Shown: positions 31,644 to 52,974 of the stretch, piece by piece | Position numbering within the stretch: the first letter of the stretch is position 1 | Layout: each line of letters begins with the position of its first letter | NCBI RefSeq assembly: GCF_964213995.1 | Contig: NC_135808.1 | Location: forward strand, 50,840,001-50,904,000 | DNA length: 64,000 nucleotides | Reading direction: 5' to 3' | Source of the DNA: Mustelus asterias | Lineage: Eukaryota | Position numbers and translations under genes: made by a program | Notes under the pieces: model-generated | Told to the model about the DNA's origin: nothing | Seen by the model: the letters and a program-made list of their open reading frames with translations, nothing else | The model's database searches: none

Positions 31644-34600
31644 TGATGCGCGATTAAATCACTCGGGAGGCTGGATCGTACCCGGGAAATAAAGGCTTTT
31701 ATTAGTAACAAGAATGGAGCATACTGCATAACGATACAATCCCAGACTAAAGGGTCACCAGGCAGTGCAGTGACCTTTATACTCCTCCAGGTAGGCGGAG
31801 CCAACTCGAGTGTACCACAGAACAATATCAACAGGTAGAACACCCCAAACCTAACCCCAACAGTGCCAACAGTAACATATGTACAAGTACCCATAGTGCT
31901 AACCATCTATGGTTCAGTACCCATAGTGGTAACCAACTATGGTTCACCACATTCACCCCTCCTTTAAAACAAAGGCCAGTGGGGCAAAAAAAACAGTACG
32001 AACTGTCCATGTATTCACAAGTTCAGTCGTATCGGAGGGCCGCACTGTCTCTGCGACCTCCTCAACACTGGCGGTAGCACCGGTTCTGGTGACCGTGATG
32101 ACCCTCTCTCCAAGGCGCTGTCCAGTGACTTCTCCAGTTCCTCATGGACAGGTGGACCACGAGGTGGCGACAATCTCCTGGACTCGAGCACGCCTCGAGG
32201 TGGCGACAATCTCCTGGACTCAGGCAAGCTGTACACGGGAGTAAGAGGATTAAGTGGTGGTCCCGATACTGCCCGCGCCGTGTCAGGAGGGGAGATAAAG
32301 GTCAAGGGGTCCCTAACCAGGGGTGTGGGAGCGACAAGGGTTTCCAAGTCCCCTGCAGGCGCCAGATCTCGACTAGGGACCGTGTCCTCTCGCCCGTCAG
32401 GATATGCCACATAGGCATATTGAGGGTTGGCATGGAGGAGATGGACCTGTTCAACCAAAGGGTCGGACTTGCGGGTCCTAACATGTCGCCGCAGGAGGAC
32501 AGGTCCTGAGTACGTCAACCAAGACGGCAGTGAGGTCCCAGAGGAAGACTTCCGAGGGAAGGAAAACATCCGCTCATGTGGAGTAGCGTTGGTTGCCGTA
32601 CACAGGAGGGACCGGATGGAATGGAGCGCATCAGAAAGTACCTCTTGCCAACGGGAGACTGGAAGACCTTTAGACCTCAACGCCAGTAAGACAGCCTTCC
32701 AGACTGTAGCATTTTCTCTTTCAACCTGCCCGTTACCCCTGGGGTTGTACTCATAGTCCTACTTGAGGCAATTCCTTTAGAGAGCAGGTATTGCCTCAAG
32801 TCGTCACTCATAAACGACGAGCCCCTATCACTGTGGATATAGCTGGGGTAACCAAACAGGGTGAAAAGATCCCGCAATGCTTTGATAACCGTGGCAGCGG
32901 TCATGTCTGAACAGGGAATGGCAAAAGGGAATCGTGAGTACTCGTCAATCACATTGAGGAAGTACACGTTCCGATCTTTCGAAGGAAGGGGGCCCTTGAA
33001 GTCCACACTCAATCTTTCAAAAGGGCGAGTGGTCTTCATGAGGTGTGCCCTGTCAGGTCGATAGAAGTGCGGTTTGCATTCAGCACATACCTGGCAGCTT
33101 CGGGTTATGGACCTGACATCATCCACTGAGTAGGGTAGATTCCAGGCCTTTACGAAATGGAAGAGCCGAGTGATCCCCGGATGGCAGAGATCATTGTGGA
33201 GGGCCTGTAGCCGGTCCTCCTGCACACTGGCACATGTTCCACGCAACAGGGCATCTGAGGGCTCATTGAGCTTCCCCGGACGGTACATGATATCATAGTT
33301 GTAGGTGGAGAGTTCGATTCTCCACCTCAAGATTCTATCATTTTTGATCTTACCCCTTAACGTGTTGTTGAACATGAACGCCACGGACCGCTGGTCCGTG
33401 AGCAGGGTGAATCGTTTTCCAGCCAAGTAATGGCGCCAATGCCGGACGACCTCCACAATGGCCTGAGCCTCTTTTTCCATCGCCGAATGTCGAATTTCGG
33501 GGCCTTGGAGGGTGCGAGAGAAAAAGGCGACGGGCCTGCCCGCCTGGTTAAGTGTGGCGGCCAGGGCGAAATCAGATGCATCACTCTCCACCTGGAAGGG
33601 GATGGAGTCATCAACAGCGTGCATCGTGGCTTTCGCGATGTCAGCTTTTATCCCTTCAAAGGCTAAGCGAGCCTCTGCTGCCAGGGGAAAAGAGGTAGAC
33701 TTTATGAGCGGACGGGCTTTGTCTGCATAATTGGGAAGCCACTGTGCGTAATACGAAAAGAAGCCTAAGCATCTTCTCAGTGCTTTGACGCTAGTGGGTA
33801 GGGGAAGTTCAAGGAGGGAACCCATACGGTCTGGATCAGGGCCAAGGACCCCGTTTTCCACCACGTATCCGAGAATTGCTAGGCGGCGCTTGCTGAATAC
33901 ACACTTCTCCCTGTTATAGGTCAGATTCAGGCGAGACTCAGTGTGTAAAAACTTTAGGAGGTTGGCATCGTGGTCCTGCTGGTCATGGCCGCAGATAGTG
34001 ACGTTGTCCAGGTACGGGAAGGTAGCCCGTAGCCTGTTTTGGTCCACCATTCGGTCCATTGCACGCTGGAAGACCGAGACCCCATTCGTGACGCCAAAGG
34101 GGACCCTTAAGAAGCGGTAGAGACGGCCATCCGCCTCAAAGGCCGTATATTTTCGGTCCTCTGGGCGAATGGGGAGCTGGTGATAAGCTGACTTCAAGTC
34201 GATGGTGGAGAACACTCGGTACTGCGCAATCTGGTTGACCATGTCAGATATGCACGGGAGAGGGTACGCGTCCAGCTGCGTGTATCTATTAATGGTCTGA
34301 CTATAGTCTATGACCATCCGGGGCTTGTCTCCAGTTTTAACCACCACGACTTGTGCTCTCCATGGGCTAGTGCTAGGTTGAATGATCCCTTCCCTGAGGA
34401 GCCGCTGAACCTCAGATCAAATAAAGATCCGATCCTCAGCGCTGTAACGCCTGCTCTTAGTTGCGATGGGCTTGCAGCATGGCATGAGATTCTCAAATAA
34501 AGATGGCGGGGTGATTCGGAGTGTCGAGAGACTGCACGTGGAGCGCGCTGGGCAATTTGGAGGCTGCTGTTCTCCCACTGAAAGTGGAGGGAGTGGCCCA

Positions 34601-36391
34601 TCGTACTGCAGGGTCACACTCCTCAGGTGGACCATAAAGTCTAGTCCCAGGAGTATCGGGGCGCAAAGGTGCGGTAACACGAGGAGCCTGAAGTTCTCAT
34701 AAACTGTGCCCCGCACTGTTAGGTTGACCACGCAGCTCCCAAGAACGGTAACAGATTGGGACCTCGACGCCATAGAAATTGTCTGTCTGACAGTCTGTAC
34801 TCGGAGACCGCACCGTTTCACGGTGTCAGGATGAATGAAACTCTCCGTGCTCCCGCTGTCAAACAGACAATGTATTAGGCGTCCGTTTACCTCTATGCCC
34901 ATCATGGACTTGTCGAGTCTGTGAGGTTTGGCCTGGTCCAGGATGATTGACGCCACTGTTGAATCTTGAGTACAACTGCAGGCAGCTGAGATGGTTGATG
35001 ATGATGACCCCTGCTGGTCGTCTGTGGTCGGTGCCGACCAAAATGGCTGCGCCCATGGATCGCACGTGGTCGATGGCGTTGAAAGTGGCGGCTCTCGCAG
35101 GTCGCACGTGTCTTGCGTCATCGTCCTCAGGAATGGCGGCGCTCGTGAACCGCACGTGGTTGAAGACCTCGACGAAGCCGGAGATGAGGAGACAGTTTCT
35201 GGAGAGTCACGCGCCGCACTGCTTGGCTTTGAATGTGGTTTAGCTCAGCACACTTTAGCATAGTGCCCTTTCTTCCCAAACGTGGAGCAAAATACCGTTC
35301 TGGCCGGACATTGCTGACGAGGGTGCTTTGCCAATCCACAGAAATAGCACCGCGGGCCACCTGGAGCTGCCGCCGTCGTCAGGTCCGAGGTTGAAAGCAC
35401 GATCGCGCAGTTCCGAGGAGCCGCTGGGTAGAGTTGAGTTGGTGGCTGTACTTGCCACGATGTTCCCACATGGTCGGTGGGGTAAGTTTCAAGACTTCTG
35501 GAGGCCGTTTCCATCGCATCAGCCAATTCCACTGTCTTAGCTAGGTCTAAGTTACCTTGCTCTAGCAGCCGCAGGCGAATATAGGATGAGCCGATTCCCG
35601 CCACGAGCGCATCTCGGATCAGATCGTTAGTGTACTGAATAGCCGACACTGGCTTGCAATTGCAGGCTCTGGCTAGCTGCTGAAGTTCGCGCAGGTACTG
35701 TCCCGTCGTTTCGCCGGGCTGCTGCCGCCGAGTGGCGAGTAGGTGACGAGCATGAATCTCGTTTGGCGGTTTGTTGTACAGCTTCTTAAGTAGTTCGATG
35801 GCCCCTTTGTAGTCTTGGGCATCGCGGATTGTTGAATATACAGTGTCGCTTACCCTTGCGTGGAGGACCCGCAATCTATCGGTGTCGTTTTGAATGGCTG
35901 TTGAGGCGTCGATATAGTTTTGGAAACACTTCAACCAATGGTCGAAAGTGTTCGACGCTCCAGCTGCACGTGGATCTAAGGTAAGCCGATCGGGTTTTAA
36001 CATTTGCTCCATGGTTTTGTTTTTTTTTCAACCAAAATTGTTACTAATAAAATTGATGCGCGATTAAATCACTCGGGAGGCTGGATCGTACCCGGGAAAT
36101 AAAGACTTTTATTAGTAACAAGAATGGAGCAAACTGCATAACGATACAATCCCAGACTAAAGGGTCACCAGGCAGTGCAGTGACCTTTATACTCCTACAG
36201 GTAGGTGGAGCCGACCGGAGTGTACCACAGAACAATATCAACAGGTAGAACACCCCAACCCTAACCCCAACAGTGACAACAGTAACATATGTACAAGTAC
36301 CCATAGTGATAACCATCTATGGTTCAGTACCCATAGTGCTAACCATCTATGGTTCAGTACCCATAGTGGTAACCATCTATGGTTCACCACA
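31644..36391 (-). mobile_element. Full-length but disrupted Gypsy (Mag-like) LTR retrotransposon
   Basis: LTRs 36054-36391 and 31644-31951 (TGTGG...CATCA); PPT AAAGGAGGGGTGAA; gag 35245-36012 with two zinc knuckles; protease LFDSGS; RT YLDN; RNase H; integrase. Several stops and frameshifts. Confidence 0.95.
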
Positions 36392-37467
36392 ATCTGTAAA
36401 GCAGTTTCATAATTAGTGATCTGTGTTAAGTCTTTGTATCTTGGAGATCTCCCTTCTCTTGAACATTGTGTTTATGTGAGCAAAGTCTGTTAGAACCATA
36501 GAAAATTACAGCTCAGAAACAGGCCTTTTGGCCCTTCTTGTCTGTGCCGAACCATTTTCTGTCCAGTCCCACTGACCTGCACTTGGACCATATCCCTCCA
36601 CACCCCTCTCATCCATGAACCCGTCCAAGTTTTTCTTAAATATGTTAAAAGCATTTACCACTTTATCCGGCAGCTCATTCCACACTCCCACCACTCTCTG
36701 CGTGAAGAAGCCCCCCCTAATATTCCCTTTAAACTTTTCTCCTTTCACCCTTAACCCATGCCCTCTGGTTTTTTTCTCCCCTAGCCTCAGCGGAAAAAGC
36801 CTGCTTGCATTCACTCTATCTATACCCATCAAAATCTTATACACCTCTATCAAATCTCCCCTCAATCTTCTATGCTCCAGGGAATAAAGTCCCAACCTAT
36901 TCAATCTCTCTCTGTAACTCAGCTTCTCAAGTCCCGGCAACATCCTTGTGAACCTTCTCTGCACTCTTTCAACCTTATTTACATCCTTCCTGTAACTAGG
37001 TGACCAAAACTGTACACAATACTCCAAATTCAGCCTCACCAATGCCTTATATAACCTTACCATAACACTCCAACTTTTATACTCCATACTCCGATTTATA
37101 AAGGCCAATGTACCAAAGGCACTCTTTACGACCCTATCCACCTGTGACATCACTTCTGGGGAATTCTGTACCTGTATTCCCAGATCCCTCTGTTCAACTG
37201 CACTCTTCAGAGTTTGAGGCGCGTCTGATAAATAGACAAGGCTGATGATGCCAGGAACAGAAGGCTTTTATTCGCTAAAAAGGAACGATGTGGAACAGGC
37301 AATAAACAGAACAATACTGGGCATGAGGATCTCCCGACTGAGGCCGGAGGGGGAGGGCTGCAGCCTTTATACCCTGAGGGCGGAGCCTCCAGTTAAAGGT
37401 GTGTGGTGAACCATCGTTGGTTCCCACTGGATAGTGCTGAGCCAGGGGCTGGCCAGTACTACAAGGC

Positions 37468-40400
37468 CACTGGCTACCTGGCAGCCTCCGCAGCGGTCAC
37501 CACAGATGATGACAGACTCCGGGTCCTCCATGCGAGGGTAAGCGACACTGTCTACCTCGCGATCCGTGCGGCCACTAATTACCCTAAGGCCCTCGAGCTT
37601 CTAAAGAAGCGCTATACCAAACCACCTAACGAGATACACGCTCGTTACCTCCTAGCCACTCGACGACGGCAGTCTGGCGAAACGATGGAGGAATATGCGA
37701 ATAAGCTCCTACAGCTAGCCAGGGGCTGTGACTGCAAAGCTGTGTCGGCTGAGCAGAGCATGTACGACCTCGCCCGAGATGCGTTTGTGGCCGGGGTCGG
37801 ATCGTCGTACATTCGACTTAAACTGTTGGAGAAGGGTAACCTTAATCTTACCCAGGCCATCGAGTTAGCAGAGATGCTCGAGTCGGCCTCCAAGAGCTTA
37901 GTTTTATATCCGGAGGACCATGTGGAGACAACGTGGCAGGAGCAGTCGCAAATTCCTCCTCGTCCCTCGGGTTCGAAATGCTGTGTAATGGCGTGCTCCC
38001 ATTCGGGCCAGGCGACGGCTGCAGCCCCGAGCGGCCCGCGGTGCTATTTCTGTGGAGGAGTGAAGCATACTCGGCAAAAGTGTCCCGCTAAAGCTGTGTT
38101 GTGCACCGCATGTGGTAAAAAAGGGCATTATTCAAAAGTGTGCCGATCTAAACCCAGGAACGGCAGTGCGGCCTGCGATTCTTCAGAGCTCAGGTCTTCG
38201 TCGTCGAAGTCGTCGCGGGGTTCGTCCACATGCGAGACCAGGACGATGCCATTACGGTCGACGGAGTCGGAGGAGTATGACCACCAGGGGTCGCTGAGTT
38301 TGGCGCCCTCGCCCACGTGCGATTCATGGGGGCAGCCATGTTGGTCGACACTGACCACGAACGACCAGCAGGGGTCCTCCTCATCGATTTCAGCTGCCTG
38401 CAGTGGCGCTCATGAACCAACGGTGGCGTCGATCATCCTGGACCAGGCCAAGCCTCATAGACTTGACAAATCTATGATGAATATCCAGGTAAATAACCAC
38501 GTGATTTATTGTCTGTTTGACAGCGGGAGCACTGAGAGCTTTATCCACCCAGACACGGTGAAGCGGTGTGGACTCCAGATTCAACCTGCCAAACAGACAA
38601 TCTCTATGGCATCAAGGTCCCGGTCTGTTGCCGCGCTAGGGAGTTGCGTGGTAACCTTGAAGGTGCAAGGCACAGTTTACGAGCGATTCAAGCTCCTTGT
38701 GTTGCCATATCTTTGCGCGCCAATACTTCTCGGACTAAACTTCATGGTCCACTTGAGGAGTGTAATCCTACAGTACGGTGGGCCACTCCCTTCACTGGCA
38801 GTGGGAAAACAGCAGCAGCCTCCAAATTGCCCAACGCGCCCCGCCTGCAGCCTCTCGACGCTGACGATCACCACACCCTCCTTGTTCCAGAATCTTGTGC
38901 CAGGCTGCAAGCCCATCGTGACTAAAAGTAGGCGTTACAGCACTGAGGATCAGATCTTCATTAGATCTGAGGTTCAGCGGCTCCTCAAAGAAAGGATCAT
39001 ACAACCCAGTGCTAGTCCGTGGAGAGCGCAGGTCGTGGTAGTCAAGAGCGGGAACAAACCCCGGATGGTCATTGACTATAGTCAGACCATTAGCCGATAT
39101 ACGCAGCTGGATGCGTATCCCCTCCCGCGCATATCTGATATGGTCAATCAGATTGCGCAGTACCGGGTGTTCTCCACCATAGACCTCAAGTCTGCCTGCC
39201 ACCAACTCCCCATTCGCCCAGAGGACCGACAATACACGGCTTTTGAGGCGGATGGTCACTTGTATCACTTTCTCAGGGTTCCCTTTGGTGTCACCAATGG
39301 GGTCTCGGTCTTCCAGTGTGCTATGGACCGAATGGTGGACCAGAACGGGCTGCGGGCTACCTTCCCGTACCTGGATAATGTCACCATCTGCGGCCATGAC
39401 CAGCAGGACCACGACATAAACCTCCTGAACTTCTTACGCACTGCATCTCACCTGAACTTGACCTACAACAGGGAGAAGTGTGTATTCCGTACACGCCGGT
39501 TAGCCATCCTGGGATACGTGGTGGAAAACGGGGTCACTGGCCCTGATCCAGACCGTATGCGCCCCCTTTCTGAACTTCCCTTACCTGCTAGTGCAAAAGC
39601 ACTGAGAAGATGCTTAGGCTTCTTCTCTTATTATGCACAGTGGGTTCCCAACTACGCGGATAAAGCCCGTCCGCTCATTAAGTCCACGACTTTTCCCCTA
39701 ATGCCAGAGGCCCGATTGGCCTTCGATAAATTGAAAGCTGACATCACGAAAGCCACGATGCACGCGGTAGACGAGTCCATCCCCTTTCAGGTGGAGAGCG
39801 ATGCATCTGATTTCGCCCTGGCCGCCACATTTAACCAGGCGGGCAGGCCCGTCGCATTTTTTTCCCGCACCCTCCAAGGCCCCGAAATTCGGCATTCAGC
39901 GGTGGAAAAGGAGGCCCAGGCCATTGTGGAGGCCGTCAGGCACTGGTGCCATTACTTGGCGGGAAAACGGTTCACCCTGATCACGGACCAGCGGTCCGTG
40001 GCGTTCATGTTTAACAACACGCAGAGGGGCAAGATCAAGAATGACAAAATCTTGCGGTGGAGAATTGAACTCTCCACCTATAACTACGACATCATGTATT
40101 GTCCAGGGTAACTCAATGAGCCCTCGGATGCCCTCTCGCGTGGAACATGCGCTAGTATACAGGAGGACCGTTTGCACGCCCTCCATAATGACCTGTGCCA
40201 TCCTGGGGGTCACTCGGCTCTACCACTTTATAAAAGCCCGCAACCTGCCTTACTCGGTGGAGGACGTCAGGTCAGTAACAAGGAGCTGTCGGATTTGCGC
40301 GGAATGCAAACCGCACTTTTACCGACCTGACCGGGCACATTTAGTCAAGGCCACTCGTCCCTTCGAGAGACTGAGTGTCGATTTTAAGGGCCCCCTTCCC

Positions 40401-41369
40401 TCAATAGATCGGAATGTGTACTTCCTCAATATCATTGATGAGTACTCTCGGTTCCCTTTTGTTGTTCCCTGCTCTGATACATCCGCTGCCACGGTTATCA
40501 AGGCATTTCGTGATCTCTTTACCCTGTTCGGGTACCCCAGCTACATCCATAGCGACAGGGGCTCGTCGTTCATGAGTGATGACTTGAGGCAATTCCTGCT
40601 CTCATACGGGATTGCCTCTAGTAGGACCACGAGTTACAACCCTAGGGGTAACGGACAGGTGGAACGTGAGAATGCTACAGTCTGGAAGGCTGTCTTACTG
40701 GCGTTGAAGTCAAAAGGTCTTCCAGTCTCCCGCTGGCAAGAGGTGCTCCCTGATGCGCTCCATTCTATTCGCTCCCTCCTGTGTACAGCAACCAATGCTA
40801 CTCCCCACGAGAGGATGTTCTCATTCTCTCGGAAGTCTTCCTCGGGGACTTCATTACCGTCTTGGTTGACGTACTCAGGACCCGTCCTCCTGCGGCGACA
40901 TGTAAGGGCCCGCAAGTCCGACCCGTTGGTCGAACAGGTCCATCTCCTCCACGCCAACCCTCAGTATGCCTATGTGGCATACCCTGACGGGCGAGAGGAC
41001 ATGGTCTCGATCCGAGACCTGGCGCCAGCAGGGGACGTAGCAACTCCTGTCGCTCCCATACCCCCTGTAACAAACCCTTTATCTCTTGTTTCTTCCCCGG
41101 ACACGGCGCGGGCAGCATCGGGACCATTGCTTAACCATTTTACCCCCATGTACAGCTTGCCTGAGCCCAGAAGATGGTCGCCACCGCAGGGCGTGTCAGG
41201 ATCCCCTGGACTACCGTCACCTCAGGGTCAACCGGCCTGTGAGTCCGTGGAAGAACAGCTGGATGCCGTTTTGGGGAGAACGCCACCGCAAGTGCCTACT
41301 CCGGTGTCACCGCCGGTATTGAGGAGGTCACAACGACGGTGCGGTCCCCCTGACCGTCTGAACTTATAG
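37468..41369 (+). pseudogene. gag-pol, copy 1 (start deleted, stop at 40109-40111, +1 frameshift at 40205-40209)
   Basis: CCHC knuckles, LFDSGS protease, RT, RNase H, integrase; lesions identified by comparison with the minus-strand relative. Confidence 0.9.
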
Positions 41370-41800
41370 ACTGCTGACACTTTATCCTGTTTTTTTTGTA
41401 CCCCGCCGGCCTTTGTTCTCAAAGGAGGGGTGAATGTGGTGAACCATCGTTGGTTCCCACTGGATAGTGCTGAGCCAGGGGCTGGCCAGGACTACAAGGC
41501 TGTACATATGTTACTGTTGGGTTGTGCTATTGTTGCTGTTGGGGTTAGGGTGGGGTTGTTACACCTTTGTACTGTAGTGTTGTGGCACATCCCAGTCGGG
41601 CTCCGCCTCCTGGGAGAGGTATAAGAGTCCCTGCTCTGGCCGGGACCCCTTCAGTCTGGGATAGTGTATATAAGTTCTGGTAGCTTCGTTAACAGTAAAT
41701 AAAAGCCTTTCATTTACTGAGCTTCAAGCCTCGTGTCTGAATAGCGCATCAATTTTATTTACTGTCGTTAAACTCTCGTCGAAAAAAAAAGAGAGAGAGT

Positions 41801-44800
41801 ATGGAGCAAATTCTGAAGCCGGAACGCCTTACGCTAGATCCACGTGCGGTGGGCGCTTCTAACACCTTCGACCACTGGCTACCTGGCAGCCTCCGCAGCG
41901 GTCACCACAGATGATGACAGACTCCGGGTCCTCCATGCGAGGGTAAGCGACACTGTCTACCTCGCGATCCGTGCGGCCACTAATTACCCTAAGGCCCTCG
42001 AGCTTCTAAAGAAGCGCTATACCAAACCACCTAACGAGATACACGCTCGTTACCTCCTAGCCACTCGACGACGGCAGTCTGGCGAAACGATGGAGGAATA
42101 TGCGAATAAGCTCCTACAGCTAGCCAGGGGCTGTGACTGCAAAGCTGTGTCGGCTGAGCAGAGCATGTACGACCTCGCCCGAGATGCGTTTGTGGCCGGG
42201 GTCGGATCGTCGTACATTCGACTTAAACTGTTGGAGAAGGGTAACCTTAATCTTACCCAGGCCATCGAGTTAGCAGAGATGCTCGAGTCGGCCTCCAAGA
42301 GCTTAGTTTTATATCCGGAGGACCATGTGGAGACAACGTGGCAGGAGCAGTCGCAAATTCCTCCTCGTCCCTCGGGTTCGAAATGCTGTGTAATGGCGTG
42401 CTCCCATTCGGGCCAGGCGACGGCTGCAGCCCCGAGCGGCCCGCGGTGCTATTTCTGTGGAGGAGTGAAGCATACTCGGCAAAAGTGTCCCGCTAAAGCT
42501 GTGTTGTGCACCGCATGTGGTAAAAAAGGGCATTATTCAAAAGTGTGCCGATCTAAACCCAGGAACGGCAGTGCGGCCTGCGATTCTTCAGAGCTCAGGT
42601 CTTCGTCGTCGAAGTCGTCGCGGGGTTCGTCCACATGCGAGACCAGGACGATGCCATTACGGTCGACGGAGTCGGAGGAGTATGACCACCAGGGGTCGCT
42701 GAGTTTGGCGCCCTCGCCCACGTGCGATTCATGGGGGCAGCCATGTTGGTCGACACTGACCACGAACGACCAGCAGGGGTCCTCCTCATCGATTTCAGCT
42801 GCCTGCAGTGGCGCTCATGAACCAACGGTGGCGTCGATCATCCTGGACCAGGCCAAGCCTCATAGACTTGACAAATCTATGATGAATATCCAGGTAAATA
42901 ACCACGTGATTTATTGTCTGTTTGACAGCGGGAGCACTGAGAGCTTTATCCACCCAGACACGGTGAAGCGGTGTGGACTCCAGATTCAACCTGCCAAACA
43001 GACAATCTCTATGGCATCAAGGTCCCGGTCTGTTGCCGCGCTAGGGAGTTGCGTGGTAACCTTGAAGGTGCAAGGCACAGTTTACGAGCGATTCAAGCTC
43101 CTTGTGTTGCCATATCTTTGCGCGCCAATACTTCTCGGACTAAACTTCATGGTCCACTTGAGGAGTGTAATCCTACAGTACGGTGGGCCACTCCCTTCAC
43201 TGGCAGTGGGAAAACAGCAGCAGCCTCCAAATTGCCCAACGCGCCCCGCCTGCAGCCTCTCGACGCTGACGATCACCACACCCTCCTTGTTCCAGAATCT
43301 TGTGCCAGGCTGCAAGCCCATCGTGACTAAAAGTAGGCGTTACAGCACTGAGGATCAGATCTTCATTAGATCTGAGGTTCAGCGGCTCCTCAAAGAAAGG
43401 ATCATACAACCCAGTGCTAGTCCGTGGAGAGCGCAGGTCGTGGTAGTCAAGAGCGGGAACAAACCCCGGATGGTCATTGACTATAGTCAGACCATTAGCC
43501 GATATACGCAGCTGGATGCGTATCCCCTCCCGCGCATATCTGATATGGTCAATCAGATTGCGCAGTACCGGGTGTTCTCCACCATAGACCTCAAGTCTGC
43601 CTGCCACCAACTCCCCATTCGCCCAGAGGACCGACAATACACGGCTTTTGAGGCGGATGGTCACTTGTATCACTTTCTCAGGGTTCCCTTTGGTGTCACC
43701 AATGGGGTCTCGGTCTTCCAGTGTGCTATGGACCGAATGGTGGACCAGAACGGGCTGCGGGCTACCTTCCCGTACCTGGATAATGTCACCATCTGCGGCC
43801 ATGACCAGCAGGACCACGACATAAACCTCCTGAACTTCTTACGCACTGCATCTCACCTGAACTTGACCTACAACAGGGAGAAGTGTGTATTCCGTACACG
43901 CCGGTTAGCCATCCTGGGATACGTGGTGGAAAACGGGGTCACTGGCCCTGATCCAGACCGTATGCGCCCCCTTTCTGAACTTCCCTTACCTGCTAGTGCA
44001 AAAGCACTGAGAAGATGCTTAGGCTTCTTCTCTTATTATGCACAGTGGGTTCCCAACTACGCGGATAAAGCCCGTCCGCTCATTAAGTCCACGACTTTTC
44101 CCCTAATGCCAGAGGCCCGATTGGCCTTCGATAAATTGAAAGCTGACATCACGAAAGCCACGATGCACGCGGTAGACGAGTCCATCCCCTTTCAGGTGGA
44201 GAGCGATGCATCTGATTTCGCCCTGGCCGCCACATTTAACCAGGCGGGCAGGCCCGTCGCATTTTTTTCCCGCACCCTCCAAGGCCCCGAAATTCGGCAT
44301 TCAGCGGTGGAAAAGGAGGCCCAGGCCATTGTGGAGGCCGTCAGGCACTGGTGCCATTACTTGGCGGGAAAACGGTTCACCCTGATCACGGACCAGCGGT
44401 CCGTGGCGTTCATGTTTAACAACACGCAGAGGGGCAAGATCAAGAATGACAAAATCTTGCGGTGGAGAATTGAACTCTCCACCTATAACTACGACATCAT
44501 GTATTGTCCAGGGTAACTCAATGAGCCCTCGGATGCCCTCTCGCGTGGAACATGCGCTAGTATACAGGAGGACCGTTTGCACGCCCTCCATAATGACCTG
44601 TGCCATCCTGGGGGTCACTCGGCTCTACCACTTTATAAAAGCCCGCAACCTGCCTTACTCGGTGGAGGACGTCAGGTCAGTAACAAGGAGCTGTCGGATT
44701 TGCGCGGAATGCAAACCGCACTTTTACCGACCTGACCGGGCACATTTAGTCAAGGCCACTCGTCCCTTCGAGAGACTGAGTGTCGATTTTAAGGGCCCCC

Positions 44801-45774
44801 TTCCCTCAATAGATCGGAATGTGTACTTCCTCAATATCATTGATGAGTACTCTCGGTTCCCTTTTGTTGTTCCCTGCTCTGATACATCCGCTGCCACGGT
44901 TATCAAGGCATTTCGTGATCTCTTTACCCTGTTCGGGTACCCCAGCTACATCCATAGCGACAGGGGCTCGTCGTTCATGAGTGATGACTTGAGGCAATTC
45001 CTGCTCTCATACGGGATTGCCTCTAGTAGGACCACGAGTTACAACCCTAGGGGTAACGGACAGGTGGAACGTGAGAATGCTACAGTCTGGAAGGCTGTCT
45101 TACTGGCGTTGAAGTCAAAAGGTCTTCCAGTCTCCCGCTGGCAAGAGGTGCTCCCTGATGCGCTCCATTCTATTCGCTCCCTCCTGTGTACAGCAACCAA
45201 TGCTACTCCCCACGAGAGGATGTTCTCATTCTCTCGGAAGTCTTCCTCGGGGACTTCATTACCGTCTTGGTTGACGTACTCAGGACCCGTCCTCCTGCGG
45301 CGACATGTAAGGGCCCGCAAGTCCGACCCGTTGGTCGAACAGGTCCATCTCCTCCACGCCAACCCTCAGTATGCCTATGTGGCATACCCTGACGGGCGAG
45401 AGGACATGGTCTCGATCCGAGACCTGGCGCCAGCAGGGGACGTAGCAACTCCTGTCGCTCCCATACCCCCTGTAACAAACCCTTTATCTCTTGTTTCTTC
45501 CCCGGACACGGCGCGGGCAGCATCGGGACCATTGCTTAACCATTTTACCCCCATGTACAGCTTGCCTGAGCCCAGAAGATGGTCGCCACCGCAGGGCGTG
45601 TCAGGATCCCCTGGACTACCGTCACCTCAGGGTCAACCGGCCTGTGAGTCCGTGGAAGAACAGCTGGATGCCGTTTTGGGGAGAACGCCACCGCAAGTGC
45701 CTACTCCGGTGTCACCGCCGGTATTGAGGAGGTCACAACGACGGTGCGGTCCCCCTGACCGTCTGAACTTATAG
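41801..45774 (+). pseudogene. gag-pol, copy 2
   Basis: ATG at 41801 (MEQILKPERLTLDP) is frameshifted after FDHWL; same stop and +1 frameshift as copy 1. Confidence 0.9.
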
Positions 45775-46205
45775 ACTGCTGACACTTTATCCTGTTTTTT
45801 TTGTACCCCGCCGGCCTTTGTTCTCAAAGGAGGGGTGAATGTGGTGAACCATCGTTGGTTCCCACTGGATAGTGCTGAGCCAGGGGCTGGCCAGGACTAC
45901 AAGGCTGTACATATGTTACTGTTGGGTTGTGCTATTGTTGCTGTTGGGGTTAGGGTGGGGTTGTTACACCTTTGTACTGTAGTGTTGTGGCACATCCCAG
46001 TCGGGCTCCGCCTCCTGGGAGAGGTATAAGAGTCCCTGCTCTGGCCGGGACCCCTTCAGTCTGGGATAGTGTATATAAGTTCTGGTAGCTTCGTTAACAG
46101 TAAATAAAAGCCTTTCATTTACTGAGCTTCAAGCCTCGTGTCTGAATAGCGCATCAATTTTATTTACTGTCGTTAAACTCTCGTCGAAAAAAAAAGAGAG
46201 AGAGT

Positions 46206-49200
46206 ATGGAGCAAATTCTGAAGCCGGAACGCCTTACGCTAGATCCACGTGCGGTGGGCGCTTCTAACACCTTCGACCACTGGCTACCTGGCAGCCTCCG
46301 CAGCGGTCACCACAGATGATGACAGACTCCGGGTCCTCCATGCGAGGGTAAGCGACACTGTCTACCTCGCGATCCGTGCGGCCACTAATTACCCTAAGGC
46401 CCTCGAGCTTCTAAAGAAGCGCTATACCAAACCACCTAACGAGATACACGCTCGTTACCTCCTAGCCACTCGACGACGGCAGTCTGGCGAAACGATGGAG
46501 GAATATGCGAATAAGCTCCTACAGCTAGCCAGGGGCTGTGACTGCAAAGCTGTGTCGGCTGAGCAGAGCATGTACGACCTCGCCCGAGATGCGTTTGTGG
46601 CCGGGGTCGGATCGTCGTACATTCGACTTAAACTGTTGGAGAAGGGTAACCTTAATCTTACCCAGGCCATCGAGTTAGCAGAGATGCTCGAGTCGGCCTC
46701 CAAGAGCTTAGTTTTATATCCGGAGGACCATGTGGAGACAACGTGGCAGGAGCAGTCGCAAATTCCTCCTCGTCCCTCGGGTTCGAAATGCTGTGTAATG
46801 GCGTGCTCCCATTCGGGCCAGGCGACGGCTGCAGCCCCGAGCGGCCCGCGGTGCTATTTCTGTGGAGGAGTGAAGCATACTCGGCAAAAGTGTCCCGCTA
46901 AAGCTGTGTTGTGCACCGCATGTGGTAAAAAAGGGCATTATTCAAAAGTGTGCCGATCTAAACCCAGGAACGGCAGTGCGGCCTGCGATTCTTCAGAGCT
47001 CAGGTCTTCGTCGTCGAAGTCGTCGCGGGGTTCGTCCACATGCGAGACCAGGACGATGCCATTACGGTCGACGGAGTCGGAGGAGTATGACCACCAGGGG
47101 TCGCTGAGTTTGGCGCCCTCGCCCACGTGCGATTCATGGGGGCAGCCATGTTGGTCGACACTGACCACGAACGACCAGCAGGGGTCCTCCTCATCGATTT
47201 CAGCTGCCTGCAGTGGCGCTCATGAACCAACGGTGGCGTCGATCATCCTGGACCAGGCCAAGCCTCATAGACTTGACAAATCTATGATGAATATCCAGGT
47301 AAATAACCACGTGATTTATTGTCTGTTTGACAGCGGGAGCACTGAGAGCTTTATCCACCCAGACACGGTGAAGCGGTGTGGACTCCAGATTCAACCTGCC
47401 AAACAGACAATCTCTATGGCATCAAGGTCCTGGTCTGTTGCCGCGCTAGGGAGTTGCGTGGTAACCTTGAAGGTGCAAGGCACAGTTTACGAGCGATTCA
47501 AGCTCCTTGTGTTGCCATATCTTTGCGCGCCAATACTTCTCGGACTAAACTTCATGGTCCACTTGAGGAGTGTAATCCTACAGTACGGTGGGCCACTCCC
47601 TTCACTGGCAGTGGGAAAACAGCAGCAGCCTCCAAATTGCCCAACGCGCCCCGCCTGCAGCCTCTCGACGCTGACGATCACCACACCCTCCTTGTTCCAG
47701 AATCTTGTGCCAGGCTGCAAGCCCATCGTGACTAAAAGTAGGCGTTACAGCACTGAGGATCAGATCTTCATTAGATCTGAGGTTCAGCGGCTCCTCAAAG
47801 AAAGGATCATACAACCCAGTGCTAGTCCGTGGAGAGCGCAGGTCGTGGTAGTCAAGAGCGGGAACAAACCCCGGATGGTCATTGACTATAGTCAGACCAT
47901 TAGCCGATATACGCAGCTGGATGCGTATCCCCTCCCGCGCATATCTGATATGGTCAATCAGATTGCGCAGTACCGGGTGTTCTCCACCATAGACCTCAAG
48001 TCTGCCTGCCACCAACTCCCCATTCGCCCAGAGGACCGACAATACACGGCTTTTGAGGCGGATGGTCACTTGTATCACTTTCTCAGGGTTCCCTTTGGTG
48101 TCACCAATGGGGTCTCGGTCTTCCAGTGTGCTATGGACCGAATGGTGGACCAGAACGGGCTGCGGGCTACCTTCCCGTACCTGGATAATGTCACCATCTG
48201 CGGCCATGACCAGCAGGACCACGACATAAACCTCCTGAACTTCTTACGCACTGCATCTCACCTGAACTTGACCTACAACAGGGAGAAGTGTGTATTCCGT
48301 ACACGCCGGTTAGCCATCCTGGGATACGTGGTGGAAAACGGGGTCACTGGCCCTGATCCAGACCGTATGCGCCCCCTTTCTGAACTTCCCTTACCTGCTA
48401 GTGCAAAAGCACTGAGAAGATGCTTAGGCTTCTTCTCTTATTATGCACAGTGGGTTCCCAACTACGCGGATAAAGCCCGTCCGCTCATTAAGTCCACGAC
48501 TTTTCCCCTAATGCCAGAGGCCCGATTGGCCTTCGATAAATTGAAAGCTGACATCACGAAAGCCACGATGCACGCGGTAGACGAGTCCATCCCCTTTCAG
48601 GTGGAGAGCGATGCATCTGATTTCGCCCTGGCCGCCACATTTAACCAGGCGGGCAGGCCCGTCGCATTTTTTTCCCGCACCCTCCAAGGCCCCGAAATTC
48701 GGCATTCAGCGGTGGAAAAGGAGGCCCAGGCCATTGTGGAGGCCGTCAGGCACTGGTACCATTACTTGGCGGGAAAACGGTTCACCCTGATCACGGACCA
48801 GCGGTCCGTGGCGTTCATGTTTAACAACACGCAGAGGGGCAAGATCAAGAATGACAAAATCTTGCGGTGGAGAATTGAACTCTCCACCTATAACTACGAC
48901 ATCATGTATTGTCCAGGGTAACTCAATGAGCCCTCGGATGCCCTCTCGCGTGGAACATGCGCTAGTATACAGGAGGACCGTTTGCACGCCCTCCATAATG
49001 ACCTGTGCCATCCTGGGGGTCACTCGGCTCTACCACTTTATAAAAGCCCGCAACCTGCCTTACTCGGTGGAGGACGTCAGGTCAGTAACAAGGAGCTGTC
49101 GGATTTGCGCGGAATGCAAACCGCACTTTTACCGACCTGACCGGGCACATTTAGTCAAGGCCACTCGTCCCTTCGAGAGACTGAGTGTCGATTTTAAGGG

Positions 49201-50179
49201 CCCCCTTCCCTCAATAGATCGGAATGTGTACTTCCTCAATATCATTGATGAGTACTCTCGGTTCCCTTTTGTTGTTCCCTGCTCTGATACATCCGCTGCC
49301 ACGGTTATCAAGGCATTTCGTGATCTCTTTACCCTGTTCGGGTACCCCAGCTACATCCATAGCGACAGGGGCTCGTCGTTCATGAGTGATGACTTGAGGC
49401 AATTCCTGCTCTCATACGGGATTGCCTCTAGTAGGACCACGAGTTACAACCCTAGGGGTAACGGACAGGTGGAACGTGAGAATGCTACAGTCTGGAAGGC
49501 TGTCTTACTGGCGTTGAAGTCAAAAGGTCTTCCAGTCTCCCGCTGGCAAGAGGTGCTCCCTGATGCGCTCCATTCTATTCGCTCCCTCCTGTGTACAGCA
49601 ACCAATGCTACTCCCCACGAGAGGATGTTCTCATTCTCTCGGAAGTCTTCCTCGGGGACTTCATTACCGTCTTGGTTGACGTACTCAGGACCCGTCCTCC
49701 TGCGGCGACATGTAAGGGCCCGCAAGTCCGACCCGTTGGTCGAACAGGTCCATCTCCTCCACGCCAACCCTCAGTATGCCTATGTGGCATACCCTGACGG
49801 GCGAGAGGACATGGTCTCGATCCGAGACCTGGCGCCAGCAGGGGACGTAGCAACTCCTGTCGCTCCCATACCCCCTGTAACAAACCCTTTATCTCTTGTT
49901 TCTTCCCCGGACACGGCGCGGGCAGCATCGGGACCATTGCTTAACCATTTTACCCCCATGTACAGCTTGCCTGAGCCCAGAAGATGGTCGCCACCGCAGG
50001 GCGTGTCAGGATCCCCTGGACTACCGTCACCTCAGGGTCAACCGGCCTGTGAGTCCGTGGAAGAACAGCTGGATGCCGTTTTGGGGAGAACGCCACCGCA
50101 AGTGCCTACTCCGGTGTCACCGCCGGTATTGAGGAGGTCACAACGACGGTGCGGTCCCCCTGACCGTCTGAACTTATAG
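46206..50179 (+). pseudogene. gag-pol, copy 3
   Basis: Same three lesions; private substitutions at 47431 and 48758. Confidence 0.9.
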
Positions 50180-52974
50180 ACTGCTGACACTTTATCCTGT
50201 TTTTTTTGTACCCCGCCGGCCTTTGTTCTCAAAGGAGGGGTGAATGTGGTGAACCATCGTTGGTTCCCACTGGATAGTGCTGAGCCAGGGGCTGGCCAGG
50301 ACTACAAGGCTGTACATATGTTACTGTTGGGTTGTGCTATTGTTGCTGTTGGGGTTAGGGTGGGGTTGTTACACCTTTGTACTGTAGTGTTGTGGCACAT
50401 CCCAGTCGGGCTCCGCCTCCTGGGAGAGGTATAAGAGTCCCTGCTCTGGCCGGGACCCCTTCAGTCTGGGATAGTGTATATAAGTTCTGGTAGCTTCGTT
50501 AACAGTAAATAAAAGCCTTTCATTTACTGAGCTTCAAGCCTCGTGTCTGAATAGCACATCAAGGTGCAGCCGAATTAAAGGTGTCAGGGAGTGTCTCATA
50601 TATGAACAGTAGTGGCAACAATATATACAGCTCAACCGTGCCGAAGGCACGACAGTGGTTTACCACAGAGTCCTACCATTTACCCTGTACGTTCTACTTT
50701 GGTTTGTCCTTCCAAAGTGCAATATCTCACACTTGTCTGCATTAAATTCCATTTGCCATTTTTCAGCCCATTTTTCTAGTTGGTCCAAATCCCTCTGCAA
50801 GTTTTGAAAACATTCTTCACTGTCCACTACACCTCCAATCTTTGTATCATCAGCAAACTTGCTGATCCAATTTACCACATTATCATCCAGATCATTGATA
50901 TAGATGACAAACAACAATGGACCCAACACCGATCCCTGCGGCACACCACTAGTCACAGGCCTCCACTCAGAGAAGCAATCCTCCACAACCACTCTCTGGC
51001 TTCTTCCATTGAGCCAGTGTCTTATCCAATTTACTACCTCCCCATGTATACCTAGCAACTGAACCTTCCTAACTAACCTCCCATGAGGGACCTTGTCAAA
51101 GGCCTTGCTGAAATCCAGGTAGACAACATCCACTGCCTTCCCTTCATCCACTTTCCTGGTAACCTCCTCGAAAAACTCTAATAGATTGGTCAAACATGAC
51201 CTACCACGCACAAAGCCATGTTGACTCTCCCTAATAAGTCCCTGTCTATCCAAATATTTGTAGATCCTATCCCTTATCACACCTTCCAATAACTTGCCCA
51301 CCACCGACGTCAAACTTACTGGCCTATAATTTCCCGGATTTCTTTTGGAACCTTTTTCAAACAACGGAACAACATGAGCCACCCTCCAATGATCCAGCAC
51401 CTCCCCCGTGAATACTGACATTTTAATTATGTCTGCCAGGGCCCCTGCAAGTTCAACACTAGCTTCCCTCAAGGTCCATGGGAATACCCTGTCTGGTCCT
51501 GGGGATTTATCCACTCTGATTTGCCTCAAGACAACGAGCACCTCCTCCCCTTTAATCTGTAAAGGTTCCATGACTTCCCTACCTGTTTGCCCTATTTCTG
51601 TAGACTCCTTGCCCATTTCCTCAGTAAATATGGATGCAAAAAAACCATTTAGTATCTCCCCCATCTCTTTTGGTTCCATACACAGTCTACCACTCTGGTC
51701 TTCAAGAGGACCAATTTTATCCCTCACTATCCTTTTGCTCCTAACATACCTATAGAAGCTCTTTGGATTTTCCTTCAATCTGTCTGCCAAAGCAACCTCA
51801 TGTCTTCTTTTAGCCCTCCTGATTTCCCTCTTAAGTAGCTTCTTGCACTTTTTATACTCCTCGAGCATCTGATCTGTTCCTTGCTGCCTGTACATTTCAT
51901 ACAACTCTCTCTTCCTCTTAATCAGTGTTACAATCTCCCTCGAGAACCAAGGTTCCTTATTCCTATTTACTTTGCCTTTAATCCTGACAGGAACATACAA
52001 ACTCTGCACTCTCAAAATTTCTCCTTTGAAGGCCTCCCACTTTCCATTTACATCCTTACCAGAGAACAGCCTGTGCCAATCCATACTTCCCAGATCCCTT
52101 CTCATTTCATCAAATTTGGCCTTTTTCCAGTTCAGAACTTCAACCCGAGGACCAGATCTATCCTTATCCATGATCAGGTTGAAACTAATGGCATTATGAT
52201 CACTGGATCCAAAGTGTTCCCTCACACTCACATCCATCACCTGCCCTAACTCATTTCCCAATAGGAGATCCAATATCGCATCCTCTCTAGTTGGCACCTC
52301 TATATACTGATGTAGAAAATTCTCCTGAACACATTTTACAAACTCTACCCCGTCTAAACCTTTAACCGTATGCGAGTCCCAATCTATATGTGGAAAATTA
52401 AAATCCCCTACTATCACAACTTTGTGTTTCTTGCAGTTGTCAGCTATCTCTCCGCTGATTTGCTCCTCCAATTCTCGCTGACTATTGGGTGGTCTATAAT
52501 ACAACCCCATTAACGTGGTCATACCTTTCCTGTTTCTGAGCTCCACCCATAGGGCCTCTGTAGACAAGCTCCCTAATCTATCCTGCCTGAGTACCGCTGT
52601 AACATTTTCCCTGACCAACAATGCCACCTTAGCCTTTGGCTATTCTTAGCCTTTTTCAGCTGCATTATCTTGGAGAGGACGCTATCCCACGCAGATCAAT
52701 CATCAACACAGCACACAATGGAGAAACCTTTCTCACTTTGCCTCTTGTGGAATATGTCTGTCAGTACATTGGAGAAATAAACCCACATATCTATTCCTTC
52801 AACCAATGCCAGGTTTTCAGCAATAAGGTGCTTTTCGCAAAACCTTTTAATCTTCTTGGATTCTCAAACCAGAGTGTAACATTTAGTATTCTTTCCCACT
52901 AAGAATCTGATGAACCCTGCGCTGTTCAAAAACCGACCCAGAAGATTGGCATGTGAAGCATCACTAAATCGTAC

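Follow-up and report, generated by a model that had tools for sequence, protein, structure and literature searches.

Covarying Duplex between the LTR and the Primer-Binding Site Position Suggests tRNA-Independent Self-Priming in a Non-Chromoviral Gypsy Lineage of Mustelus asterias

Introduction

What primes reverse transcription in a Gypsy retrotransposon whose sequence directly after the LTR is complementary to a segment of that same LTR? This question is raised by an element in a 64,000-nucleotide stretch of the 3.68 Gb genome of Mustelus asterias (contig NC_135808.1, positions 50,840,001 to 50,904,000), hereafter referred to as the window and numbered from its first letter. Tf1 is an established self-primer, and its chromoviral relatives are assumed to share this mode. 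In the accessible portions of the literature, it is described for the Tf1/sushi chromoviruses and Tcn1 and predicted for the TAR copia elements (PMC6317226, PMC10085805, PMC4600332), and in Tf1 bases 1 to 11 of the RNA pair with the primer site and are then cut off (PMC7175516). The original prediction, made from the letters of the window, proposed that the element self-primes from its LTR and that the duplex alternatively or additionally masks the poly(A) signal of the 5′ LTR.

Organization of the Element

The element belongs to a three-unit Gypsy tandem array on the positive strand (37402..50561), which has a period of 4405 bp and LTRs common to its units. The array constitutes one insertion, bounded by a 5-bp target duplication at 37397-37401 and 50562-50566. 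Most of the 5′ LTR and the primer site of unit 1 are gone, and the units differ by 0 to 2 positions over 3968 bp. The units share the same breaks, indicating that the array either arose after insertion or is an assembly repeat. The array is nested within a solo LTR of a related family, and this solo LTR within a LINE (37215-50667), with LINE open reading frames at 36506-37267 and 50660-52639 around the nested insertion.

The LTR before unit 2 (41435..41751, positive strand) is 317 bp in length, starts with TG and ends with CA; it is identical to the LTR at 45840-46156 and has one difference from that at 50245-50561. The gag-pol region (41801..45774, positive strand) encodes two CCHC knuckles, protease, reverse transcriptase (RT), RNase H and integrase, and is broken, the start codon being out of frame with the long open reading frame, a stop lying at 44514-44516 and the integrase occupying another frame. 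A polypurine tract (45828..45839, positive strand) ends in AA before the next LTR. The TG..CA LTRs, the target duplication, the polypurine tract and the order protease-RT-RNase H-integrase identify a Ty3/Gypsy element, and target duplications of 5 bp were found in 39 of 44 cases in the window lineage. In protein searches, the closest named proteins were from rays, save for one nematode match.

The LTR Block and the Primer Site

As the original prediction had described, the sequence at 41753-41765 is the exact reverse complement of 41692-41704 in the LTR and begins one base past the LTR end, this positive-strand spacer being a single A (41752); inspection also bore out that TGG is absent after the LTR and that the complementary LTR segment contains AATAAA (41698-41703). 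The full register in the lineage is 15 nt rather than 13, joining an LTR block that is the candidate self-primer (41690..41704, positive strand) with a putative primer-binding site (41753..41767, positive strand); in the window family, the 13 perfect Watson-Crick pairs at 41692-41704 are followed by A.C and U.G. A one-base gap between the CA and the site, with the terminal A of the block on the first T of the site, is the geometry of a minus-strand primer, as in retroviral tRNA priming. None of 5000 dinucleotide shuffles of the LTR contained a 13-nt complement (the best reached 11), which excludes chance. The recurrence of the pair at 46097-46109 and 46158-46170 was correctly noted (46095..46172 in the full register, positive strand), but it lies in unit 3, an identical tandem copy, and is not independent evidence. 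Directly after the block, nearly all families have RCC, which on visual inspection appears to start a short hairpin that ends in GGY (window 41705-41751; loci L062-L139 elsewhere); the predicted cut would sit at the junction of block and RCC.

A related element, family 2, lies on the negative strand of the window (31644..36391, with LTRs at 36054-36391 and 31644-31951). Its RT-RNase H is 89% identical to that of family 1, its open reading frame is broken by stops and a frameshift, and all six of positions 8-13 in its LTR block (36107..36121, negative strand) differ from family 1. The family 2 primer site (36038..36052, negative strand) is a perfect 15-nt complement of its own block, so that the site tracks the changed block exactly and compensation is visible within the 64-kb window. 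The start of the family 2 5′ LTR (36296-36386) has three 30-nt tandem repeats versus two in its 3′ LTR, and a matching target duplication was not found at the flanks. A third family is represented by the solo LTR split by the array, with its 3′ part at 37215..37401 (negative strand) and its 5′ part at 50562-50667. The block of this solo LTR predicted the primer site of full copies elsewhere in the host: among 18 matches, the 11 that extend into gag each have the predicted site, exactly or nearly so.

Covariation among Host Copies

Covariation of the two segments, which the original prediction had put forward as its check, was assessed in host copies collected by a pattern anchored on two features external to the duplex, the gag start and an initiator-like motif. 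This pattern returned 6384 matches versus 22 in the control. The first 90 matches in genome order, all on one contig (C1), were sampled, and removal of a chance match (L185) left 89; an LTR without element interior after it (L240) was kept where n is 89 and dropped where n is 88. A host pattern built on the duplex region, AATAAA..CA-A-TTTATT, was at chance level (2262 matches versus 3914 in the control).

Block and site covary at positions 8-14, which are Watson-Crick in 76-88 of the 89 copies versus shuffle means of 24-63, with mutual information of up to 1.86 bits; positions 1-7 are nearly constant. Pairing ends sharply past position 15 (79 Watson-Crick and 8 G.U pairs among the 89), position 16 being Watson-Crick in 7, and the spacer is one base in every copy (A in 87, G in 2). 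There are 24 distinct hexamers in the blocks and 28 in the primer sites, and a run of at least 11 pairs joins a block with its own site in 71 of 89 copies, versus 188 of 7354 cross pairs. When only the 17 states seen in at least two copies are considered, 221 of 221 pairs at positions 1-13 are Watson-Crick, with no G.U. Flawed copies (20/88) occur at the share expected from decay after insertion (21%, from LTR divergence). The copies are related, such that these counts are not independent events and the shuffles take no account of relatedness; even so, distinct compensated states are far more numerous than common descent would produce.

Some copies have LTR blocks that differ from each other, and in these the site matches the 3′ copy in two (L233, L280) and the 5′ copy in six (L243, L245, L246, L258, L261, L264); the sequence is compatible with pairing of the site to either LTR copy. 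Block and site alleles of two subfamilies, or two differing LTR blocks, are present in L233, L257 and L280, suggesting recombination between subfamilies.

Distant Families

Proteins with 55-80% identity were found in cnidarian, mollusc, nematode and crustacean records, and no relatives were found among viral contigs. Metagenome contigs yielded 80 loci, of which 37 reach the front of Gag and 29 with usable order were tested. A duplex of 10-22 bp was identified in 23 of these 29 loci, which make up 14 families with unrelated block sequences; it always lies one base after the CA, and 0 of 100 shuffles matched it at each locus. One locus, L065, matched in a shifted register. The six loci without a duplex include two that lack upstream sequence, one that is rearranged, and three (L076, L103 and L117) that are unexplained or decayed. 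The apparent start of a further locus, L006, at the block is due to a SINE insertion at that point. By sequence comparison, the duplex is a real, clade-wide and strongly covarying feature.

Relationship to Known Lineages

The accessible sections of the relevant papers show that Tf1, Tf2, Tj1 and the Tf1/sushi group including Tcn1 resemble the window lineage in having no tRNA site, a site complementary to an LTR segment, and the Ty3/Gypsy pol order (PMC7175516, PMC10085805, PMC4600332, PMC6317226). As described there, Tf1/sushi elements prime with the RNA's first 11 nt, held in a three-duplex 'pretzel', whereas the primer of the window lineage would be 13-15 nt long, is predicted to be internal, and overlaps AAUAAA in the host. 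Tf1/sushi elements usually have a chromodomain, whereas neither a chromodomain nor a Tf2-type SH3 was found in the window lineage: the integrase C-terminal chromodomain was absent from the window open reading frames and from 14/14 long relatives (Pfam E<=0.01), and these sequences had no Pfam matches to SH3, chromo or env domains. The lineage is therefore not filed under Tf1/sushi, though it would work like them. A chromovirus outgroup was sought in the host and not found, the SH3 matches being retrovirus-like or giving no RT; decayed retrovirus-like pol fragments with the RT motif YVDD (L347, L348, L350 and L352) were recovered by this SH3 search. A quick RT-RNase H tree, built from 39 rows after 16 near-identical control rows and short fragments had been left out, sets the lineage apart on one side of a branch whose support is 99.

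The features of the lineage plausibly fit either Cigr-1 or the Mag lineage, beside both of which it was set by features rather than by named reference sequences. Cigr-1 has a single open reading frame of about 1200 aa, as does the window lineage. Two CCHC knuckles, loss of GPY/F, and the absence of a chromodomain and env are likewise shared with Cigr-1 as characterized in the available part of its description (PMC2774666). The Cigr-1 clade is present in a tunicate and molluscs, and one mollusc study lists Cigr-1 under Mag, according to the accessible text (PMC6238403). The Mag lineage (clades A, B and C) also resembles the window lineage in its two CCHC knuckles. One extra residue after the RT 'DY' relative to Ty3 is shared by the window lineage and a control Gypsy family of the host, which we take to be Mag-A-like. 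Grouping with this control family is weak (SH-aLRT 89, in a quick tree with long branches and this unnamed family as sole Mag reference), and RT-RNase H identity to it is only about 25-30%. Mosquito Mag elements have tRNA-Leu, tRNA-Ser or tRNA-Arg sites in the portion of the survey available (PMC3286476), whereas the window lineage has no TGG or tRNA-type site.

Three further systems can be compared from the accessible parts of their descriptions. Self-priming is predicted outside the chromoviruses for TAR (Houba/Osr-1) elements (PMC6317226), but these are Ty1/copia elements of plants. The primer site of the fungal Ty1/copia element GalEa is replaced by a hairpin self-structure, but this hairpin, as presented, does not pair with the LTR (PMC5445492). 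The Saci2/lennie elements of flatworms have a single Gag-Pol open reading frame, as here, and primer sites that vary between families, but their target duplications are 4 bp versus 5 bp here and their sites were assigned to tRNAs by the author (PMC12471100). A search for motifs in paper supplements and a second protein search gave no clade name for the lineage. Full-text searches of the available literature returned no account of self-priming in a non-chromoviral Gypsy clade of animals, and a prior mention elsewhere, as in subscription papers, Repbase or GyDB, is possible.

Predicted Transcript Start and Leader Fold

Upstream of the block, a TATA-like box (TATAAG, 41620..41625, positive strand), a putative promoter element, and an initiator-like TCAGT (41651..41655, positive strand) predict a transcript start at 41653, 37 nt before the block. 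The A of YAGT is 36-37 nt before the block in 87/89 host copies, and 59 nt before it in the third family, while TATAWA is 31-33 nt before this A in 66/89; conservation of the initiator is partly selected, as the host pattern itself required YAGTCTGGG. A conserved TATA box and initiator at this distance suggest that the block lies inside the transcript and that the primer would be internal. Directly 5′ of the block, a 7-nt motif (41683..41689, positive strand), limited to the host lineage, is predicted to pair with the gag start at 41801-41807. Its three positions that allow only Watson-Crick pairs are nearly fixed (87, 88 and 81 of 88), while the four at which G.U is also allowed are variable. 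Both the promoter spacing and the variation of this motif suggest that the RNA reaches upstream of the block. Per host subfamily the start-codon helix is weak (p 0.003-0.63), and it was rejected as a clade-wide feature, having no support in distant families (combined p 0.63).

Predicted folds show a central duplex with weak and variable extensions, the pair probability of the 5′ block copy with the site being mostly 0.8-0.99. Whole-leader folding gave z scores of -1.5 for the window family, which is not significant, and -3.2 for family 2, and a hairpin is predicted between the primer site and the gag start (41772..41800, positive strand). Without the primer site, the block is predicted to fold back locally (window 41693-41718) and partly cover AAUAAA, and the 3′ LTR may thus have its own poly(A) hairpin. 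Both window families also carry an inverted repeat in the interval from TATA box to initiator (41628-41647; 36162-36190, negative strand), and its arms differ between the two. A search of Rfam found nothing near threshold, and a search for poly(A)-tailed retrocopies that would place the 3′ end returned 0 matches. A conserved AG was considered as a splice acceptor and rejected, since T occupies the position in about half of host copies and the pairing runs through it.

A Model for Self-Priming and Its Alternatives

That the LTR block serves in tRNA-independent self-priming, in any form, is very likely. The self-priming part of the original prediction is well supported by the covariation; the tie that it drew to the poly(A) signal holds in the host lineage but is not general, as AATAAA or ATTAAA is found within the block in 5 of 14 distant families and is missing from it in 9, three of which have one further downstream. 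The upstream promoter elements, which would place the block inside the transcript, and the compensated family 2 were not part of that prediction.

For the more specific proposal, that the primer is a block cut from a predicted internal position of the element's own RNA leader, in the 5′ copy, and replaces the tRNA, the chances appear evenly balanced. Under this model, transcription would begin near 41653 and the block would pair with the primer site, the two covarying and the fold being predicted. By analogy with Tf1, RT/RNase H would then nick the RNA after the last A of the block, one base from the LTR end, from which minus-strand DNA would copy U5 and the short remainder of R and jump to the 3′ end. 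Plus-strand synthesis would copy the primer and thereby rewrite the site from the block in every cycle, which would keep complementarity strict. In the Mustelus asterias host, the duplex is also predicted to hide AAUAAA, and this solely at the 5′ end. The strictness of the Watson-Crick pairing, next to a start-codon helix that freely fixes G.U (81 in 539 cells), would be expected if the site is recopied from the primer, and goes beyond what masking would need.

The principal alternative, an unlikely one, is that transcription starts at the block itself, with the opening 11-15 nt of the RNA acting as primer, exactly as in Tf1. By eye, AG[T/C] was counted at the start of the final 11 nt of the block in 10 of the 14 distant families (L062, L063, L066, L068, L069, L078, L099, L107, L135 and L139), a motif that may represent an initiator, a cleavage determinant or chance ancestry; the Tf1 primer is of the same length in the accessible account of that element (PMC7175516), the sharp 15-nt limit could be an RNA 5′ end, and the window family has TATATAA 27 nt before the A of AG[T/C]. 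However, TATAWA stands at a fitting distance, 17-36 nt before the block, in only 16/89 host copies, against the conserved box further upstream, and position 15, wherever it pairs, is invariably T and shows no initiator pattern. Positions 12-14 covary, implying a pairing strand longer than 11 nt, and the motif 5′ of the block varies as if it were paired to the gag start.

It is rather improbable that the primer is instead supplied by the 3′ copy, with the 3′ end of the genomic RNA trimmed to the block and pairing with the site in cis or across the dimer. Such a primer would predict the same covariation, the block is at or near the poly(A) signal and would thus be close to the RNA 3′ end, and an uncut 5′ end would leave a longer overlap for strand transfer. 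This route would nevertheless require removal of the tail plus 10-30 nt, the site is predicted to be taken up by the 5′ copy, which lies only about 50 nt from it, and no precedent was found in the literature searched.

A purely regulatory fold, in which the duplex hides the 5′ poly(A) signal (and start codon) and something else primes, has little probability. The probability that AAUAAA is unpaired is predicted to be 0.01 in the 5′ context versus 0.43 in the LTR alone across 17 subfamilies, in keeping with the masking at the 5′ end that the original prediction proposed. Masking cannot account for the strict Watson-Crick pairing, however, as it would tolerate G.U and none is fixed at positions 1-13, and it leaves both the fixed one-base spacer and the absence of any other primer site unexplained. 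The distant blocks that lack the signal argue that masking is not the main role; hiding of the 5′ AAUAAA is probably a second use of the duplex in the host.

Comparison of the post-LTR sequence with tRNAs, likewise suggested in the original prediction, gave best matches of 8 and 5 nt, both internal, for the two window families among 38 host tRNA genes of 7 isotypes. In 16 of 18 LTR pairs, the control host Gypsy family has TGG at most 5 bases past the LTR (two ends were not resolved); its self-complement is at most 6 nt, and its site has a 15-nt match to host tRNA-Thr. This family (L321-L340) is young, with open reading frames of up to about 1996 aa and a site four to five T's past the LTR end; tRNA-Lys(TTT) and tRNA-Thr genes occur in the host in a tandem array with a period near 1.8 kb (L201, L202; G000:C16). 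Half-tRNA priming exists in some copia lineages according to the accessible text of one study (PMC6317226), and the tRNA set was only those 38 genes, but priming by a tRNA half or fragment with an incidental self-complement is extremely improbable, given these short matches beside the 15 nt of the control family and the 28 primer-site hexamers that track their own LTRs in one genome.

Implications

Taken as a whole, the broadest reading is offered tentatively, at slightly less than an even chance: a large, animal-wide, non-chromoviral Gypsy clade may have invented self-priming independently, with either an internal segment of the RNA leader or the 3′ end of the genomic RNA as its primer. In cartilaginous fish, the duplex would serve as primer, as poly(A) mask and as the hub of a fold that holds the start codon, with the site rewritten from the LTR in each cycle. 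With so many compensated variants existing in nature, the mechanism can be tested directly on short RNAs, and tools that seek a tRNA match miss or mislabel such elements. If the reading is true, an internal primer would be a different way of making a 3′-OH, and 3′ tRNA fragments directed at primer sites would have no hold on these elements. The existence of a distinct animal clade of this kind, present in thousands of copies in one vertebrate genome, would then mean that tRNA priming has been abandoned more than once.
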